From: an uncultured Chitinophagaceae bacterium
Lineage (GTDB): Bacteria; Bacteroidota; Bacteroidia; Chitinophagales; Chitinophagaceae
NCBI GenBank assembly: GCA_938017685.1
Contig: CALIIL010000084.1
Coordinates: forward strand, 2,089-34,088
Reading direction: 5' to 3'
DNA length: 32,000 nucleotides
Shown here: positions 2,576 to 24,186 of the stretch, one piece after another
How the letters are laid out: every line of letters starts with the position of its first letter
Position numbering within the stretch: the stretch's first letter is position 1
Position numbers and translations under genes: made by a program
Notes under the pieces: model-generated
What the model saw: only the letters and a program-made list of their open reading frames with translations
Told to the model about the DNA's origin: nothing
Database searches by the model: none

Positions 2576-3478
2576 ATGAACTTTAAACTTATTATATTTT
2601 GTGTGCTACTCGGCCTTGTATCAAGCTGCAAGGTGCAAAATGTTATGGTTGCCAAAAAGGCTGTGTTGCAAAATGATAGTTTGATTAGTGAAAGTCAGGA
2701 GTTACTGGCACATGTGCAACAATTATATATAAACGGCCAGATTGATAGTGTATCACTTGTTGGGTATAAACAGGAATTAAACAACCTGCTAGAGCCTGCT
2801 GTAATACGCCAACGGAACATCAAGAAATTTAATGTCTTAACGGCTGATCCATTGAGCCGTATTGAAGAAAGAAGAACTATTGATGCGCTTAAAAAAACGA
2901 TGCCTAATTACAGTAAAGACATTGAGAAAGATGCAAGTGTATTGTCAAGTTTGGGTGGGTTGTTGTTAAGTAAAGAAACGTTTTTTAATAATGCAAAAGC
3001 ACATACTGTAGAAAAGAAGGCATATTACGATGTAGGGAAGTATGTCATTCCCTATAAAATAAAGCCGCAGGCTATGGAGGTGTACGCACCAATGGTTGAT
3101 AGTATTTTTATGATTGCTCAGAGTAAGCTTGATCAAAATACACAAGCGTATATTTTGATCTCTGGTTATGCAGATGCAAGTCCAATAATTGATAGTTCTG
3201 AATTATATAATGATTTGCATTTTAGAATGGGAAGAAAAGACATTACCTATGATGAAATGAAAATGTACATCTCTCATTTAAGGTGTTACGATATTGCAAG
3301 TATAATTGAAACCCTGATTAGCCAAAAAAGAAAGGTGTTTGGAGGTATGAAAAACTTGAAAATAGATATTGACCGAGAGGGTTTTGGAATAAGCAAGCCG
3401 CATAGCGCCATAGAGTACCAAGCTATTGATGAAAGGCGCCGTACGGTGCATGTACAGTGGTATATTCTAAGCCAATAA
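2576..3478 (+). CDS. Lipoprotein with a weak OmpA/MotB-like C-terminal domain
   Basis: Signal peptide with lipobox LVSSC. The C-terminal region ILISGYADASPI ... ISHLRCYDIASIIETL ... GFGISKP ... RRRTVHVQ loosely follows the OmpA-like peptidoglycan-binding pattern. Confidence 0.55.
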   Translation: MNFKLIIFCVLLGLVSSCKVQNVMVAKKAVLQNDSLISESQELLAHVQQLYINGQIDSVSLVGYKQELNNLLEPAVIRQRNIKKFNVLTADPLSRIEERRTIDALKKTMPNYSKDIEKDASVLSSLGGLLLSKETFFNNAKAHTVEKKAYYDVGKYVIPYKIKPQAMEVYAPMVDSIFMIAQSKLDQNTQAYILISGYADASPIIDSSELYNDLHFRMGRKDITYDEMKMYISHLRCYDIASIIETLISQKRKVFGGMKNLKIDIDREGFGISKPHSAIEYQAIDERRRTVHVQWYILSQ

Positions 3479-4363
3479 GTTGTGCATGCAAGATGCGAGG
3501 TCAGCATGTTTAAATGTATAGCCAGCGTCTACTATTTTATCAGAAACTACATGGCTACTTTTTAATACTTCTATAGCGAGCTCTCCCATAATTATTTTGA
3601 GCATGAAGGCGGGTGCATGTACGGCAATCCAATAGTTTTTTTCTGCTTTAATGGCTTTAAATACATCGGTCATGCTTGATTTTTGAGGAGCTGCCGCATT
3701 GAAAACACCCGTTATTTTATGTTCATATAAATGAAGAAATATGCCGGCTACATCTTGCACATGTATCCACGGAAAAATTTGCTTGCCATTACCGGGTATG
3801 CCTACAAACTTAAAGGGTAGTGTGGCCACAAATTTGGGAAAGGCGCCATCTCCTTGGCCCAGCACCACGCCGATTCGTACAATGCTTGTTTTAATATTCA
3901 GTTTTTCAAACTGAGTGGCACCTTGTTCCCATGCTTGGCAGGTGGTCGATAGAAAGGATTCGTCTGGAGGTGTATGTTCGGTTAGTGCTCCATTAGCATT
4001 TCCATAAAAACCAATAGCTGATGCGGATAAAAGATGGTCACATTCGATACGCTGTTCACTACATAAACGATACAGCGTATTTAATATGTCTGTACGGCTT
4101 TTTAGCACACGCTCTTTATGGGCATCGCTCCAGCGTTCGTTGGCTATATTTTCTCCCGCAAGGTTTATGATGGTATATTTTTTACCATTGACCTGCTCAT
4201 GTACATAATGTTCTTTGGGCATCCAATGGATATAGTGTTTGTTGTTGGCAGCGAGTTGTTCTTGTCTGGTTAATATGTATACGTTGCAACCTTTCTTTTC
4301 TAATGCGGCTACTAGTTGTGTGCCTATAAATCCTGTTCCGCCTGTTATTAATATATTGTCCAT
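3467..4363 (-). CDS. NAD(P)-binding epimerase-family protein (YfcH/TIGR01777-like)
   Basis: 298 aa with N-terminal Rossmann motif ILITGGTGFIGTQL. Length and C-terminal region are typical of the YfcH-type SDR-like family (recalled, not searched). Confidence 0.75.
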   Translation of the reverse strand: MDNILITGGTGFIGTQLVAALEKKGCNVYILTRQEQLAANNKHYIHWMPKEHYVHEQVNGKKYTIINLAGENIANERWSDAHKERVLKSRTDILNTLYRLCSEQRIECDHLLSASAIGFYGNANGALTEHTPPDESFLSTTCQAWEQGATQFEKLNIKTSIVRIGVVLGQGDGAFPKFVATLPFKFVGIPGNGKQIFPWIHVQDVAGIFLHLYEHKITGVFNAAAPQKSSMTDVFKAIKAEKNYWIAVHAPAFMLKIIMGELAIEVLKSSHVVSDKIVDAGYTFKHADLASCMHNLLA

Positions 4364-4437: not shown

Positions 4438-5880
4438 ATGAGATTATATCATATCATAATATGCATTGTCATAAGTTTTGTCTATGCCAAGCCTGCGGTG
4501 GGGCAAGATTTATTGTATAGCGAAACGGAAAGAGCCAATGGCGCTATTGAAGAAGTGCAGGTCGTTGGTATGCTTAAGGAAAAGCTTGTGACCTATGTTA
4601 GAAGAGGTAATATAGCTAAGTTGATTTGGTATAACTTAAACTTAGATCGCTATGGTTATTCTTTGTTAGACTTTTATTCTAATAATGTGTCTGATATTAA
4701 CTTGAGTATTGTTGATGATGAAGTGCATATTTTTTATCAAGTGCGCGAAAAAAGAATGTTGAAATTATATGCCACTAAAATTTACGACAGAGACGATACC
4801 TTTAAACCAGTGCTATTGGATAGTATTCCGTTAAAAGGAGTATTTGATAAGACTAAGTTTGAGATTGTTCATAATGAGAAGGGTAAAAAACACTTTTATG
4901 GATTGGTAAGCAATATTGCTGGAGAGGATAAGTTATACATTAATCATACAGTATTAAATGGTGCTTATGAAATGGTGCAACGTTATGAGCAAGCGTTAGA
5001 TGTTACGCGCCGTTACGAGTTAATAGAAATGAATGTTGATAAGACAGGCAAGTTCTATAGTCTTATTGGTGAGTTGCGTGGTACCAAAAAGAATTATGAA
5101 GAGCTTGCCTTACTTACGAGGAGTGTGGGTGAGAATCAAGTAAGCAACCTAGCTATTGATTTAAAGAATTATGCTTATAGTGGTCTGAAGTCTCGCTTTG
5201 ATGATAATGAGTCTCACCTATATTTTGGAGGATTATTCCATAGGACAAGAAATGCGGAGCCGGAGGGTGTAGTCGCGTTGGTGTATAGCCGGAGCCAAAA
5301 TAAAGTAATTAGACAACATGTATCTCCAATTGTATTGCAAGGGAATATTGGCAGTAATGTGCTTTCTCATTTAAAACTAAGAGGTATACGCATTGTTGCG
5401 GATAATGGCTTTGAGATAGTTGCTGAGAAGTCTTACGTGGAGTCTCGTAACATGGGCACGTCCATCGGATTTATGAGTCCGATGGGTGGTATGTCTCCGG
5501 CGGGGAATCGAATAGAAAATATTTATCATGACCAAGACATCTATGTGTTTAATATGAAAGCCGATGGCAGCTTGCATTGGACGCAGACAGTTATGAAAAA
5601 CCAAGAGTCTAGACAAGATAACGGAGCTTTTTCATCCTTTGCGACCTTGGAGCATCCAATAGGTGCCGTTTATTTGTTTAATGAAATGGGTAATAATGGT
5701 CGTGTAATCACTTCCTATATCTCCAATAGTGGAGAGCTAAGTCTCAAACAGCTTCCTGGAGCAAGTAATAATGATAATAGACAGTTTATACTACGAGGGG
5801 CGCAGCAAATAAGTAAAGATGTATTAATAGCGCCCGCTATTTCTAAAGGAGACCTTAGCTTTGTAAAAATATCTTTTTAA
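4438..5880 (+). CDS. Hypothetical secreted or membrane-anchored protein
   Basis: 480-aa ORF with hydrophobic N-terminus (IIICIVISFVYAKPAVGQ). No recognisable motifs. First gene of a tightly packed five-gene plus-strand block. Confidence 0.7.
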   Translation: MRLYHIIICIVISFVYAKPAVGQDLLYSETERANGAIEEVQVVGMLKEKLVTYVRRGNIAKLIWYNLNLDRYGYSLLDFYSNNVSDINLSIVDDEVHIFYQVREKRMLKLYATKIYDRDDTFKPVLLDSIPLKGVFDKTKFEIVHNEKGKKHFYGLVSNIAGEDKLYINHTVLNGAYEMVQRYEQALDVTRRYELIEMNVDKTGKFYSLIGELRGTKKNYEELALLTRSVGENQVSNLAIDLKNYAYSGLKSRFDDNESHLYFGGLFHRTRNAEPEGVVALVYSRSQNKVIRQHVSPIVLQGNIGSNVLSHLKLRGIRIVADNGFEIVAEKSYVESRNMGTSIGFMSPMGGMSPAGNRIENIYHDQDIYVFNMKADGSLHWTQTVMKNQESRQDNGAFSSFATLEHPIGAVYLFNEMGNNGRVITSYISNSGELSLKQLPGASNNDNRQFILRGAQQISKDVLIAPAISKGDLSFVKISF

Positions 5881-19841: not shown

Positions 19842-19863
19842 TAGAATTACAAATGTAATTCTA
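19842..19863. promoter_or_regulatory. Perfect palindrome TAGAATTACA-AA-TGTAATTCTA between the metH stop and the T9SS cargo gene start
   Basis: 10-bp arms at 19842-19851 and 19854-19863, all positions complementary. It overlaps the metH TAG stop (19861-19863) and contains a -7 box. Confidence 0.45.
19850..19857 (-). promoter_or_regulatory. Candidate -7 promoter box (TACATTTG on minus strand), 9 nt upstream of the T9SS cargo gene ATG
   Basis: Plus-strand CAAATGTA, embedded in the palindrome. Confidence 0.4.
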
Positions 19864-22533
19864 TGCAGTCAAATTTGGTGCCAACCACTTATTAATGAAC
19901 TCAATACTTTCTTTTTTACGAGTAGCATAATCCTCCACTTGGTCTTCTTGTATTTTTCCAATGCCAAAATACTTACTCTCAGGATTAGCAAAATACCAAC
20001 CACTTACTGAAGAGGCAGGGTACATGGCTAGGCTTTCTGTAAGCATAATGCCTGTATTTTCTTGGCCGCCCAATAATTCAAACAATTTAATTTTTTCGGT
20101 ATGGTCGGGGCAAGCAGGGTAACCCGGAGCCGGTCGTATTCCTTGGTATTTTTCGCGGATTAAATCATTGTTCTCGTAACTTTCATCAGCCGCGTAGCCC
20201 CAATAATTTTTGCGCACTTGTTCGTGCAAATACTCGGCAAAGGCCTCGGCTAAACGGTCAGCTAATGCCCGTAGCATGATTTTGTTATAGTCGTCATGCT
20301 CTTCTTCAAAAGCCTTTAAGTGCGGCTCTATTCCTTTAATCGTTACAGCAAAAGCACCCATATAGTCTTTCTTGTTTTCTTCTTTTGGGCAAATGAAATC
20401 GGCTAAAGATAAATTTGGTTGAGTGGCTGATTTTTTAGATTGTTGGCGTAGGAAATTCAACTGTACAGTTTCCTCCCCTTTATCCCCTCCAGAGGGGAAC
20501 AGATTTATATCATCGCCAATGGCTGTCGCTTCCCACAGGCCAAATGTTCCTTGTGGTGTGAGCCAGTTCTGTGCTATTATTTTATCTAAAAGGTCATTGG
20601 CATCTTTAAATAATTTGGTGGCTTCATCGCCAACCACTTTATCATTTAATATTGCAGGATATTTTCCATGCATTTCCCATGTAATAAAGAACGGGGTCCA
20701 ATCAATATACTTTCTAAGGGTAGCAATGGCTACTTCTACATTTTGAACACCAAGTTGATTTGGGACTGCGGCATCAAAATTTTTCCAATCAATGTTTACT
20801 TTGTTAGCTTTAGCTTGTTCATAAGAAATTAGCTGTTTTACACTTTGTTTCTTTGCAAAGCTTTCGCGTAAATCTGAGTATTCTTCTTTGGTTGCTTGCA
20901 ATAATGCTTCTCCTTTTCCTTCTTGAAATAATTCGCCAACCGTCGTTACGCACTTACTCGCATCTAAGATATGTAATACGCCATGGTCGTATTGTGGTTC
21001 AATTTTTACAGCCGTGTGCATGCGGCTTGTTGTTGCGCCGCCAATAAGTAATGGTAGGTTTAAGTTACGTTTTTTAAGCTCAGTAGCTACGCCTACCATC
21101 TCGTCCAATGAAGGTGTAATTAAGCCGCTTAGTCCTATAACGTCTACTTTGTGTTTTATCGCTTCGTCTATAATTTTTTCTGTTGGTACCATTACACCAA
21201 GGTCTACCACGTCGTAGCCATTACAGCCTAAAACAACACCTACAATATTTTTTCCAATATCATGTACATCGCCTTTAACCGTCGCTAACAAAACTTTTAA
21301 TGCATTACTCGTATCCTCTTGAACCAATTTTTCTTCTTCGATATAAGGTGTAAGTATAGCTACGGATTTTTTCATCACACGAGCACTTTTTACCACTTGT
21401 GGCAAAAACATTTTACCAGCACCAAATAAATCACCCACTACATTCATGCCCGCCATGAGTGGTCCTTCAATCACTTCGAGCGGTTTGTTGTAATGTTTCC
21501 GAGCTTCTTCGGTATCCTCATCTATAAATTCTGTTATGCCATTGACCAAGGCATGCGATAATCTTTCGGCAACGGTTCCCTCTCGCCAAGTCAAATCTAC
21601 TTTTTTTAATTCCGTCCCTTTTTTATCTTTTAAGCCTTCGGCAAAATCGATTAAAGCGTCCGTAGCACCTTCATGTTTATTAAATAATACATCTTCAATA
21701 AGTTTTTTTAACTTGGGCTCAATGGCATCATAAATTGGCAAGGCACCTGCATTAATGATCCCCATATTCAATCCTTTTTGAATAGCATAATATAAGAAAA
21801 TACTATGCATGGCTTCACGCACATAATTATTTCCTCGGAATGAAAATGATAAATTACTAATACCACCACTTATTGAAACGCTCGGGAACTTTTCTTTTAA
21901 TTGCTTAGCTGCTTCTATGAAATCAATAGCGTAATTATTATGTTCTTCCAATCCAGTCGCTACAGCAAATACATTTGGATCAAATATGATATCGCTTGGA
22001 TCGAAGCCTATTTCTTCTGTTAGTATTTTATAGGCTCGTGAGCATACAGTAATTCTTCGGTCCAGCGTATCGGCTTGGCCTGCTTCATCAAATGCCATAA
22101 CAACTACTGCTGCACCATAACGCTTGCATAAAGTGGCTTGTTTTTTAAAACTGTCTTCGCCTTCTTTTAGGGAAATAGAATTTACAACACACTTGCCTTG
22201 CACACATTTTAATCCTGCTTCAATAATGTCCCACTTACTGCTATCAATCATGATAGGCACTTTGGCAATACTTGGTTCGGCTTGTACGAGATTTAAAAAA
22301 GTCTTCATGGCCTCTACACCGTCAAGCAAGGCATCATCCATATTGATATCAATAATTTGGGCACCATTTTCTACTTGTTGTAGTGCAACGGTTAGCGCTT
22401 CTTCATAATTATCTTCACGAATTAAGCGTGCAAATTTTCGCGAACCTGTCACATTGGTGCGTTCTCCTACATTGATAAAGTTGCTTCCTTCAAAAACTTG
22501 TAAAGGTTCTAATCCTGCTATTTTTAGTTTCAT
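19861..22533 (-). CDS. metH: Methionine synthase, cobalamin-dependent: pterin-binding, B12-binding and AdoMet-activation modules (lacks the Hcy module)
   Basis: 890 aa. Starts [11 protein letters not shown]...GERTNVTGS, the start of the pterin domain. Has [11 protein letters not shown] (DxHxxG), [11 protein letters not shown] and [12 protein letters not shown]. Confidence 0.93.
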
Positions 22534-22550
22534 TGTTATTGTTTTTTTTT

Positions 22551-22589
22551 ACCACAAGGGGCACAAAGGTTTACACAAGGTTCACAAGG
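22551..22589. repeat. Four tandem ~10-bp CACAAGG-type repeats (left end of the cassette)
   Basis: ACCACAAGG GGCACAAAGG TTTACACAAGG TTCACAAGG, read directly. Confidence 0.8.
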
Positions 22590-22591
22590 TT

Positions 22592-22975
22592 TTAAAGTGT
22601 ACCGTTGATAATTCTTTTTACTCCGTTTTTAAACTGTGTGGTATTAAAGTTTATTAATAAGCCTAGTTTTAATTCTGATAGTTTTAAATAAGTTAAGGTT
22701 TGGGCTAGGTGAATATCCGCCAAAGTATCTACTGATTTGATTTCTATGATTAGTTTATTTTCAACCAGTAAGTCTATTCTGTAACCAACTTCTAATTGTA
22801 CATTTTCATAGATTAATGGTAAGCCTTTTTCCTTTTCTACTTTTAATCCAGCTTGAATCAATTCATAAAAAAGACATTCTTGGTAGACACTTTCTAATAA
22901 TCCGGGACCTAATTTCCGATGAATTTTAAGTCCTAGATCAAATACTATTTTAGCTAAATCATTTTCCGAATACAT
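22592..22975 (-). CDS. GxxExxY protein (PD-(D/E)XK nuclease-like, TIGR04256/PDDEXK_3 type)
   Basis: 127 aa from the ATG at 22975 (MYSENDLAKIVF...). Signature GPGLLESVY, followed by RIDLLVENKLIIEIK (D..E.K nuclease-like core) and LLINF near the C-terminus. The longer track ORF (to 23104) overlaps metH and is rejected. Confidence 0.85.
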   Translation of the reverse strand: MYSENDLAKIVFDLGLKIHRKLGPGLLESVYQECLFYELIQAGLKVEKEKGLPLIYENVQLEVGYRIDLLVENKLIIEIKSVDTLADIHLAQTLTYLKLSELKLGLLINFNTTQFKNGVKRIINGTL

Positions 22976-22980
22976 AATTT

Positions 22981-23020
22981 CTTTGTGCCCTTTGCGTAAA
23001 AACTTAGTGAACCTTGTGGT
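22981..23020. repeat. Right-end repeat block of the cassette, inverted relative to the left end
   Basis: CTTTGTGCCC TTTGCG TAAAAAC TTAGTGAA CCTTGTGGT. It encodes the last five residues (HHKVH) and the stop of the upstream metH piece. Confidence 0.8.
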
Positions 23021-24002
23021 GAATAGAACGAGGTGCAACACCTTCCACCGCTTTGGCAATTGCATTGATATGCGGCGGCGTTGTTCCGCAGCAACCGCCC
23101 ACAATATTGATTAGGCCTTCTTCTGCCCATCCTTTAATTATGTTGGCTGTATACTCGGGTGTTTCGTCGTATTCGCCCATGGCGTTGGGTAAGCCAGCGT
23201 TGGGGTAAGCACTCACATAGCAATTGGCTATTTTAGAAAGGTTGGTTATAAAAGGTTTCATTTGCTCGCCTCCTAAAGCACAATTTAATCCTACAGAAAT
23301 AGGGTTGGCATGTTCTATTGAATAATAAAAAGCATCTAAGGTTTGCCCACTTAATGTTCTGCCAGAATTGTCTGTAATTGTTCCCGAAATCATAATGGGT
23401 AACTCCATATTGTTCTCATCAAAATATCGCTTGGTTGCAAAAATGGCCGCCTTAGCATTGAGCGTATCAAAAATGGTTTCTATCATTATGATGTCCACGC
23501 CACCTTTTACTAAACCAGCAACTTGCTCGTGATAGGCATTTTCAATTTCATCAAAAGTGACTGCTCTGTAACCAGGATTGTTTACATCGGGAGATAATGA
23601 AAGTGTTTTATTCGTTGGTCCAATTGCGCCAGCGACAAAAGTGGGTCGGTTGCTATCCTTGGCAAATTCATCACAAGCACGACGGGCGCATTGAGCGGCC
23701 GCCACATTGACTTCGTAGCTTATCTCTTCCATTTCATAATCTGCCATGGATATGACTTGGCCATTAAAAGTATTCGTTTCAATAATGTGTGCGCCTGCTC
23801 TTAAATATTCTAAATGAATGTTTTTAATAATATCAGGTTGTGTAATGCTTAGTAAGTCGTTGTTGCCTTTTACATCGCAATGCCAATCTTTAAATCGTTC
23901 TCCGCGATAATCGGCTTCTTCTAATTTGTGGCGTTGTATCATCGTGCCCATGGCGCCATCAATGATTACAATTTGTTGTTCGAGTAATTCTTGTAATGTC
24001 AT
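23004..24002 (-). CDS. metH: Homocysteine S-methyltransferase module of methionine synthase, encoded as a separate ORF
   Basis: 332 aa. Has DGAMGT, GLNCALG and [11 protein letters not shown] (zinc-ligand cysteines). Ends ...VEGVAPRSI followed by a cassette-encoded HHKVH and stop. Confidence 0.9.
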
Positions 24003-24116
24003 ATTAGTTCAGTTTTTTATTTTACTGAACTATAGGTTTCACAAAAATGTTTTTGGGAAATGTTTATTAGTTCAGTTTTTTAATACTTGGCCGAACAATA
24101 AACAAATCTGCCAAGT
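24003..24116 (-). promoter_or_regulatory. Structured 5' leader of the metH operon (unclassified)
   Basis: 18-nt direct repeat TATTAGTTCAGTTTTTTA at 24002-24019 and 24065-24082. A 9-bp hairpin (24005-24013 with 24024-24032) abuts the ATG. A second 7-bp hairpin ACTTGGC/GCCAAGT lies at 24085-24116. Confidence 0.4.
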
Positions 24117-24120
24117 GACG

Positions 24121-24128
24121 CAAAATTA
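24121..24128 (-). promoter_or_regulatory. Candidate -7 promoter box (TAATTTTG on minus strand) for the metH operon
   Basis: Plus-strand CAAAATTA. It predicts a leader of roughly 110-115 nt. Confidence 0.4.
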
Positions 24129-24173
24129 GACTTGAAAATGATACTAAGAAAATTTATTTGCCTTTTTAAAGTA

Positions 24174-24181
24174 TAAATTTG
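24174..24181 (+). promoter_or_regulatory. Candidate -7 promoter box TAAATTTG, 5 nt upstream of the histidine kinase ATG
   Basis: Exact TAnnTTTG match. Confidence 0.4.
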
Positions 24182-24186
24182 CTTTA

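Follow-up and report, generated by a model that had tools for sequence, protein, structure and literature searches.

The 32-kb window analyzed here (32,000 nucleotides of contig CALIIL010000084.1 from an uncultured Chitinophagaceae bacterium, numbered from its first letter) carries a gene of the GxxExxY family between the two genes that together encode the B12-dependent methionine synthase MetH. The gene is enclosed by inverted arrays of a short repeat. The analyses described below show that this cassette recently entered a metH that was already split, and suggest that it is probably, though far from certainly, a compact selfish element that works at the DNA level and has ends resembling terminal inverted repeats.

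The locus is composed of three consecutive minus-strand open reading frames (ORFs; Table 1). A sequence-only reading of the window had proposed that a GxxExxY gene lies between two metH ORFs at the junction of the homocysteine-binding (Hcy) and pterin modules, and the ORFs, Pfam and NCBIfam all agree with this arrangement. The full MetH module set is split over the two outer ORFs by Pfam, with Hcy on the first and the pterin, B12 cap, B12-binding and activation modules on the second, here called the C-part. Compared with PRK09490, the NCBIfam profile of single-chain MetH with 1234 positions, the Hcy ORF corresponds to positions 11-339 and the C-part to positions 343-1230. Because the outer ORFs cover these two intervals, the cut is placed in the interdomain linker with almost nothing lost, only 3 profile positions being missing between them. 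Taken singly, both ORFs score below the PRK09490 cut-off of 1497 bits, so the window possesses the split form and not a single polypeptide. No Rfam family was found at gathering score anywhere in the window (1-32000), and upstream of the metH genes (about 24003-24186) neither a cobalamin nor an S-adenosylmethionine riboswitch was detected at that score.

The protein of the middle ORF scored 143.2 bits against TIGR04256 (cut-off 35; positions 2-116 of 116) and 137.4 bits against PF13366 (PDDEXK_3; cut-off 22; positions 2-117 of 117). Its motifs are intact, namely G25-L-L-E28-S-V-Y31, D68, E78-I-K80 and Q92-xxx-Y96. Residue conservation analysis over 40 homologues showed that G25, E28, Y31, D68, K80, Q92 and Y96 are invariant, E78 is nearly so, and the mean column identity is 79%. 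The AlphaFold2 model (pLDDT 78.6) shows the elements of a minimal PD-(D/E)XK domain in the order alpha-alpha-beta4-alpha-beta. In Foldseek, the best match was Cas4 SSO0001 (E 4e-3, TM-score about 0.46), followed by lambda-exonuclease-like and restriction-endonuclease-like structures, all of them weak. A sequence search of the PDB gave no match to a solved structure, while PADLOC returned only a marginal Cas4b match (E 0.013) and PHROGs two marginal matches. The family comprises 18,952 clusters at 50% identity (E <= 1e-3), or 6,379 at E <= 1e-10. A single review entry was found for GxxExxY/PF13366, which gives its function as 'Unknown' (PMC3424549), and no description of the GxxExxY cassette or its repeats was found in the literature searched, a partial coverage that is no proof of novelty. 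Among the 150 cluster representatives listed, about a dozen (P0241-P0246, P0251 and others) are 263-295 aa long and contain two tandem GxxExxY domains; these may be fused neighbouring cassettes.

The cassette extends over about 23023..22548 (~475 bp). At its left end, the terminus TTCACC is followed by four heptamers, the innermost of which lies 5 nt from the GxxExxY ATG. At the right end, four reverse-complement heptamers begin 2 nt past the GxxExxY stop and lead to the terminus GGTAAA. This 3' array is the sole tandem repeat identified in the window by Tandem Repeats Finder, and an array scan of the window found these two arrays and no others. The sequence-only reading had described a discrete GxxExxY cassette without transposase, bounded by the perfect 9-bp inverted repeats ACCACAAGG / CCTTGTGGT. 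The ORF content and the arrays support such a cassette, and the 9-mers are present at 23020-23012 and 22559-22551, one inside each cassette end. The inverted repeats are thus real but the limits derived from them (23020..22551) were too narrow; the 9-mer makes up just the outermost unit of a wider design composed of a TTWACC terminus and three to four CRCARAG heptamers. Taken alone, the 9-mer is unremarkable, as the window contains a third occurrence at 20549 and, once one mismatch is allowed, 9 matches against 4.5 expected. The inverted similarity of flank to flank, in contrast, scored 41 compared to 13.5 +/- 2.6 in shuffles, a value reached by none of 5000 shuffles and none of 844 sliding window controls. 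Between the cassette end and the second metH gene lies a short A-rich leader.

By the sequence-only reading, a complete lack of related copies would argue against mobility. No second copy exists in the 32-kb window, but the same architecture was found in other genomes at about 60 non-redundant GxxExxY loci from three phyla, where a TTWACC terminus and three to four CRCARAG heptamers lie at the ATG and a mirror array at the stop. A metagenome scan added 80 GxxExxY loci, and the architecture was counted over 58 non-redundant loci. Upstream of the gene, 102 sense and 35 antisense heptamers were present, and downstream 124 antisense and 31 sense, where shuffling gives about 3.6. The heptamers are most often spaced at 9 nt, and the arrays are often positioned 0-5 nt from the ATG and 0-6 nt from the stop. 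At either end the outermost unit conforms to the consensus TT[AT]ACC-CRCARAG (in 58 element ends, T 86%, T 79%, A 88%, C 79%). Beyond the array end, 8-25 mostly A-rich nucleotides commonly precede the ATG of the next gene. Neighbouring genes are separated from the cassette by short gaps and are co-oriented with it in 35/43 cases downstream and 35/41 upstream, and no intrinsic terminator was predicted inside the cassette.

Individual copies illustrate this design. The relatives of the window protein at 77-78% identity are situated between hflX and a Na+/H+ exchanger gene and between SDR and GH63-like genes; all have a 5' array, and the hflX-locus copies have the 3' array also. In Bacteroides finegoldii, radA-Gx possesses a CACAGAG-type array upstream and the mirror CTCTGTG downstream, while in Gemmatirosa (Gemmatimonadota) a CGCAGAG hairpin is located beside the GxxExxY gene. 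In Sphingomonas parapaucimobilis NZ_CP155749.1 (L171:1471-1899), the gene is placed between fabD and fabG with gaps of 33 nt upstream and 2 nt downstream, and three CGCGAAG-type motifs touch its ATG without any 3' array. In related alphaproteobacterial replicons fabD and fabG are about 430 nt closer, which fits the absence of the gene; this filled/empty pair is too distant (about 73% nucleotide identity) to define ends. Two other identities of the arrays were considered and dropped. The spacing does not fit Bacteroidota promoters (-33/-7) and the cores do not fit attC sites, both as judged by eye, and the arrays are also present in Proteobacteria and Gemmatimonadota.

Forms without a gene were found as well. 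Array-loop-array hairpins, back-to-back junctions and long tandem series were observed at L023, L025, L105, L141, L142, L144 and L168, often directly upstream of a GxxExxY gene, and they look like non-autonomous derivatives. The tandem unit of L168 is about 165 nt long and composed of a 3' array, GGTAAAAAAAGGAATAACC, a 5' array and a conserved spacer of about 95 nt. Lacibacter cauensis CGMCC 1.7271 possesses a solo 5'-type array (L020:5029-5062; CACTAAG, CACAAAG, CGCAAAG, CACAAAG) in the metH spacer, between the Hcy stop and the C-part ATG, with neither a GxxExxY gene nor a 3' array. This array either remains from a cassette since lost or is independent.

Arrays facing each other across a gene could also act in RNA. 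The cassette would then be an intervening sequence in which the arrays pair within the polycistronic metH transcript, hold GxxExxY in the loop and allow a double-strand RNase (RNase III) to separate the three cistrons, so that they serve RNA processing or insulation and not DNA mobility. ORF-bearing intervening sequences of 23S rRNA, cut by double-strand RNase, are a precedent. In the predicted fold of the transcript 23035-22530 the two flanks, 5' and 3', pair as a panhandle of -103.9 kcal/mol compared to -87.0 +/- 5.5 in shuffles (z = -3.1); in addition, the arrays abut start and stop codons, the cassettes are nearly always co-oriented with both neighbours in tight gene strings, and no terminator is predicted within them. 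We nevertheless consider this role unlikely. Complementarity from arm to arm is 89% in the motif columns but only 46% between the motifs, compared to 49% for arms swapped between unrelated loci, and the mismatches show no excess of G:U on the sense strand (35 G:U-type and 50 A:C-type, p = 0.13). A selected stem is therefore not supported by the between-motif pairing or by the G:U count. Nor does a stem need identical 7-mers at a 9-nt period or a distinct TTWACC terminus. Gene-less hairpins, tandem junctions and solo arrays are found away from any ORF, cassettes with a single array exist (Sphingomonas, L085), and around the cassette Rfam gave no family at gathering threshold and only noise at E up to 10. 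The identical 7-mers at fixed period, the distinct terminus and the gene-less forms therefore favour a DNA-level element over a conserved RNA helix.

To place the cassette among its relatives, the genome collection was scanned with the Hcy ORF, which gave 80 loci mostly labelled Chitinophagaceae or related Bacteroidota; 6 of them are 87-94% identical in protein. The cassette is also present in two independent assemblies (L081 and L082), with 97-98% nucleotide identity across Hcy, cassette and C-part. L001-L006 and L169, which fall within the clusters of 87-96% identity, have neither a GxxExxY gene nor a heptamer array, the sequence of L169 (96%, the closest cassette-free relative) ending 57 nt past the Hcy stop. 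A native Hcy tail, PRKLKELA-stop or a close variant, was observed in all 14 protein clusters at 87-96% identity, and the five spacers sequenced within these clusters lack the cassette. In the window, Hcy ends with PR-SIHHKVH-stop, and the last seven codons and the TAA lie in the cassette terminus and the first two heptamers. Because SIHHKVH-stop lies within the cassette end, six codons at the end of Hcy, its stop and the greater part of the spacer were displaced by the cassette. Similarity to a relative persists only over about 10-15 nt ahead of the second ATG (distal leader compared with the native leader of L004). Both metH ORFs are intact despite the cassette, which supplies SIHHKVH-stop to Hcy and an A-rich leader to the second gene. 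No precise empty site was found among the 87-96% relatives, whose spacers differ so much among themselves and from the window that the breakpoints could not be placed to the base. The comparison gives solid support to a recent gain of the cassette as a whole unit, arrays together with gene, in the lineage of the window.

The same spacer has been occupied in other lineages. Among the 80 loci, GxxExxY matches were found in 6 metH spacers and in none of about 640 kb of flanking DNA; five metH spacers other than the window's carry such genes, those of L007, L025 (decayed), L055, L070 and L077. These five share a common layout with differing motif variants such as CACAAAG, CACGAAG and CACAGAG. Two abundant, Ferruginibacter-like proteins (P0073 and P0097) and the metagenome locus L090 are also located in metH spacers. 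The metH-spacer copies represent at least 8 lineages and at least 4 separate places on a neighbour-joining tree, which has no support values and so gives a minimum estimate of the insertions, not proof. The window copy groups with genes from other loci, at 79-81% alignment identity, compared to 73% or less by tblastn to the other spacer copies. On this minimum estimate, the metH spacer appears to have been hit independently at least four times, and the metH locus is, as far as these loci indicate, a recurrent landing pad for small nuclease-type elements. It is plausible that the conserved flanking genes provide homology for transfer and that read-through provides expression. Since the split between the window and L081, synonymous and nonsynonymous changes number 21:6 in Hcy, 30:3 in the C-part and 2:5 in GxxExxY (2:5 compared with 51:9 in metH, Fisher p = 0.003, on small numbers), and the 2:5 ratio would fit relaxed constraint on the cassette gene.

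A useful host nuclease with a role in repair, defence or regulation, already resident in the metH spacer of an early Chitinophagaceae ancestor, mostly lost since and accompanied by arrays that are operator or regulatory sites, would also place these genes where they are. The strong conservation over the 40 homologues with invariant catalytic residues would suit such a gene, the spacer copies L007, L077, L090 and L176/L185 cluster loosely, and the family is chromosomal, not plasmid- or phage-borne. We hold this to be quite improbable. The closest relatives of the window copy are at unrelated loci, and the spacer copies are polyphyletic with differing junction positions and motif variants. Many independent clean losses would be required because the 14 clusters keep the native tail and the sequenced spacers are array-free. 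Constraint is moreover relaxed in situ, and the clusters at 50% identity are scattered over unrelated housekeeping operons in several phyla.

Other small elements were also observed at metH. An ORF6N-domain gene is present in the metH spacers of L071 (~5075-5605), L072 (~5058-5590) and L078 (3019-3576); that of L078 matches PF10543 with 7.3e-35 and is flanked by its own perfect hairpins (ACTTGAAGTCACAAATTGTGACTTCAAGT). The metH spacers of L073 and L080 contain non-coding repeats of the GAAAATGTG type and a CCCTCTCC...GGAGAGGG hairpin. In L008, L032 and L080 a DUF559 (Vsr-like endonuclease) domain of roughly 140 aa is inserted in frame within the MetH activation module, at a point that corresponds in the window ORF 19861-22533 to about aa 715-725 (loop ADFICP/KEENKK/DYMGAF). 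It is flanked by SPSP...REEGE-type peptides, probably derived from repeat DNA of the GGAGAGGG type. These insertions contain no stops, and the nuclease domain is nested in the essential enzyme as neither an intein nor a separate gene.

The split of metH was found to be older than the cassette. A stop codon of its own ends the Hcy ORF at all 80 related loci, and in 76/76 loci that hold both metH halves the C-part has its own ATG and is never fused, with the cut at the same boundary. Each of the best 120 matches of the Hcy protein in a collection of 5.8 billion proteins is a stand-alone protein, 329-373 aa long, with PF02574 as its sole Pfam domain. In the cassette-free relatives L001-L006 a spacer of 19-72 nt separates the Hcy stop from the own ATG of the C-part. 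The L007 locus stops just beyond its cassette. The own stops, the split loci and a conserved micro-ORF in the spacer (described below) together indicate that the two-gene metH is old and under selection. Comparison of these gene structures shows the predicted B12-dependent methionine synthase of Chitinophagaceae to be ancestrally encoded by two adjacent genes cut at the Hcy/pterin linker, and the conservation of both ORFs suggests that the enzyme works as two chains. The sequence-only reading had offered two histories, a cassette which split a once-continuous metH and one which entered the gap between the genes of a metH already split. The second is borne out by cassette-free close relatives that already have two ORFs with their own stop and start, and the first is contradicted by the same loci. 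Its frame arithmetic was correct, as recomputed deletion of 22551-23020 gives a stop-free fusion of 3672 nt and 1223 aa. The in-frame fusion is nevertheless an uninformative coincidence, because 164/960 (17%) of nearby deletion end-point pairs do likewise and the ancestral state had a stop codon. Nor would removal be precise, as the cassette took the place of the native Hcy tail, its stop and the bulk of the spacer. That the cassette created the two-gene form from a continuous gene, with precise excision restoring a 1223-aa MetH, is therefore hardly tenable despite the stop-free deletion and a linker length close to the single-chain profile, given the older split, the relatives at 87-96% with own stop, own ATG and short spacer where sequenced, and the many equivalent end-point pairs.

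Within the spacer of other lineages, a conserved hydrophobic micro-ORF of 32-33 aa (MTTxQLLLIxSILILVVNNFSxIKKLFxKKNS) was observed at 17 loci with a 95-98-nt spacer, including L011 (5029-5127), L015, L023, L031, L032, L037, L039, L044, L057, L063 and L076. Its ATG overlaps the Hcy stop (ATGA) in 17/17, and its stop abuts the C-part ATG in 16/17. The micro-ORF has no Pfam match and is absent from the window's own clade. Three loci from Taibaiella / Flavipsychrobacter metagenome-assembled genomes (L019, L034 and L064) have no metH C-part within their 1.2-3.6 kb of downstream sequence, and the metH halves may be non-adjacent in some lineages.

On the explanation favoured here, a compact selfish cassette in an already split metH, a unit of about 475 bp was acquired at the 3' end of the first metH gene, replacing its tail, its stop and most of the spacer. 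The arrays would represent DNA-level terminal inverted repeats with subterminal, iteron-like sites for a binding protein, most likely the encoded nuclease or a partner acting in trans. The unit might spread rarely, through recombination or homing assisted by the nuclease, with short spacers between conserved, co-transcribed housekeeping genes as its targets. Once in a spacer, the cassette would be transcribed by read-through and be nearly neutral.

Several observations weigh against this explanation. No transposase, integrase or relaxase was recognisable, the only cassette ORF being the PF13366 nuclease; this protein is a predicted PD-(D/E)XK nuclease with putative DNA binding, and its structural matches are weak. 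No direct repeat flanks the unit in the window, as had already been noticed in the sequence-only reading, and the TTAA recurring at the ends of other copies belongs to the palindrome and is therefore not scorable as a target-site duplication. About 80 nt of the target were replaced with no clean insertion, and for this reason the exact cassette ends were deduced from the consensus instead of a filled/empty pair. The 5.8-billion-protein collection contained no second copy above about 80% identity, so there is no sign of recent transposition of the window copy. Similarly, no identical GxxExxY protein was found at two loci, the two multi-contig proteins checked (P0073 and P0097) each being at one locus, the metH spacer. 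GxxExxY occurs in only 8 of 72,556 plasmid records, none predicted mobilizable, and no match was found in phages. Within a cassette, both arms agree in motif variant (Spearman 0.85 and 0.82), but host G+C content alone could account for this agreement, and motif class is only weakly related to protein similarity (66.3% and 63.9% mean identity, the difference being reached by 17/2000 permutations). Finally, the predicted panhandle leaves room for a role in RNA.

The cassette shares features with several known systems. Like the REPIN systems of proteobacteria, with their repetitive extragenic palindromic (REP) elements and REP-associated tyrosine transposases (RAYTs), it combines a small nuclease-type gene flanked by inverted short repeats with gene-less intergenic doublets. 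However, RAYT is a HUH/Y1 (IS200/IS605-like) transposase, usually in single copy, whereas the cassette encodes a 125-aa PD-(D/E)XK protein of a very large family, and REP forms GTAG-headed hairpins where the cassette has three to four heptamers at about 9-nt spacing with TTWACC; its link between protein and repeat is putative. Miniature inverted-repeat transposable elements (MITEs) and their autonomous partners (Correia/NEMIS-type) likewise have terminal inverted repeats, gene-less versions of about 80-110 bp, insertion in intergenic or operon spacers and co-transcription potential. The terminal inverted repeats expected of an insertion sequence or MITE are present (TTCACC and four heptamers / four heptamers and GGTAAA), but a target-site duplication and a recognised transposase or recombinase family are not, and the cassette differs further in its multi-copy subterminal repeats and in replacing about 80 nt.

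Homing endonuclease genes, inteins and introns resemble the cassette as selfish nuclease genes at conserved housekeeping loci with repeated independent hits and relaxed constraint. The housekeeping loci with GxxExxY cassettes include the metH halves, fabD-fabG, radA, hflX and carA/carB. Unlike inteins and introns, the cassette has its own ATG and stop, is a reading unit separate from metH and matches no Rfam intron. In contrast to homing endonucleases it has no LAGLIDADG, GIY-YIG, HNH or His-Cys box, and it is bounded by arrays, which classical ones lack. Integron cassettes are similarly promoter-less single ORFs, co-oriented, sometimes in tandem and with an imperfect palindrome at the junctions (L102, L089, L105). 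Here, however, half-palindromes flank the ORF on both sides even in single cassettes, the termini GGTTAAA / TTWACC match, by eye, neither the R' core GTTRRRY nor the R'' core RYYYAAC, and the cassettes are dispersed in housekeeping operons, not placed beside an attI/intI platform. For the enzyme itself, Phaeobacter inhibens has a three-part split MetH whose separate module polypeptides must assemble and which relies on a separate RamA-like reactivation system (PMC5764234). The window's MetH is likewise cut between domains into separate polypeptides, but in two parts (Hcy; pterin, B12 and activation) that are adjacent, probably co-transcribed and conserved across one family.

It is possible, though we would not count on it, that GxxExxY genes and TTWACC-(CRCARAG)n arrays form a widespread class of compact mobile elements, of which no published description was found in a partial literature search. 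The class would extend over Bacteroidota, Gemmatimonadota, Proteobacteria and others. Its sole encoded function would be a 125-aa Cas4/RecB-like nuclease that recognises the iteron-like terminal arrays, the gene-less hairpins would be MITE/REPIN-like non-autonomous derivatives, and the unit would home into the short spacers of conserved housekeeping operons, the split-metH junction among them, and be expressed there by read-through.

Table 1. Features of the metH locus in the window and related features at other loci (positions prefixed by L belong to the locus named).
Feature	Position	Strand	Evidence or detail
metH part 1 (stand-alone homocysteine-binding Hcy module, 332 aa)	23004..24002	-	ORF list, PF02574 2.6e-101
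Cassette 5' (left) end: terminus TTCACC and four heptamers	22981..23023	-	Sequence, array scan, inverted repeats, 58-end consensus
5' heptamers CACAAGG, CACTAAG, CGCAAAG, CACAAAG	23018-23012, 23009-23003, 22996-22990, 22987-22981	-	
GxxExxY-family minimal PD-(D/E)XK nuclease gene (predicted), 127 aa	22592..22975	-	PF13366 3.5e-40, TIGR04256 4.1e-42
Cassette 3' (right) end: four reverse-complement heptamers and terminus GGTAAA	22548..22589	-	Sequence, inverted/direct repeats, array scan, Tandem Repeats Finder
3' heptamers CCTTGTG, CCTTGTG, CTTTGTG, CCTTGTG	22589-22583, 22580-22574, 22568-22562, 22559-22553	-	
A-rich leader A9-CAATAACA between cassette end and metH part 2 ATG	22534..22550	-	
metH part 2 (pterin-binding, B12-cap, B12-binding and activation modules; 890 aa, intact)	19861..22533	-	PF00809, PF02607, PF02310, PF02965
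Gene-less and tandem array forms	L168:1387-2242, 3208-3610; L105:65-3130; L142:638-757, 2167-2453; L144:2379-2468; L023:3669-3740		
In-frame DUF559 insertions in MetH	L008:4212-4651; L032:7314-7732; L080:7437-7903		PF04480 2.2e-31 for L008

For the locus, the answer is deflationary, as the two-gene methionine synthase was not created by the cassette. The insertion shows that the Hcy chain can accept an interdomain tail made up entirely of repeat-encoded residues, which is useful for the engineering of split MetH. For the GxxExxY/PF13366 family, a fixed genomic anatomy composed of arrays, gene-less and tandem derivatives and co-oriented housekeeping gaps gives a testable hypothesis on its function. 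The split-metH junction of Chitinophagaceae represents a compact comparative system for the way small nuclease elements colonise essential operons without killing them.

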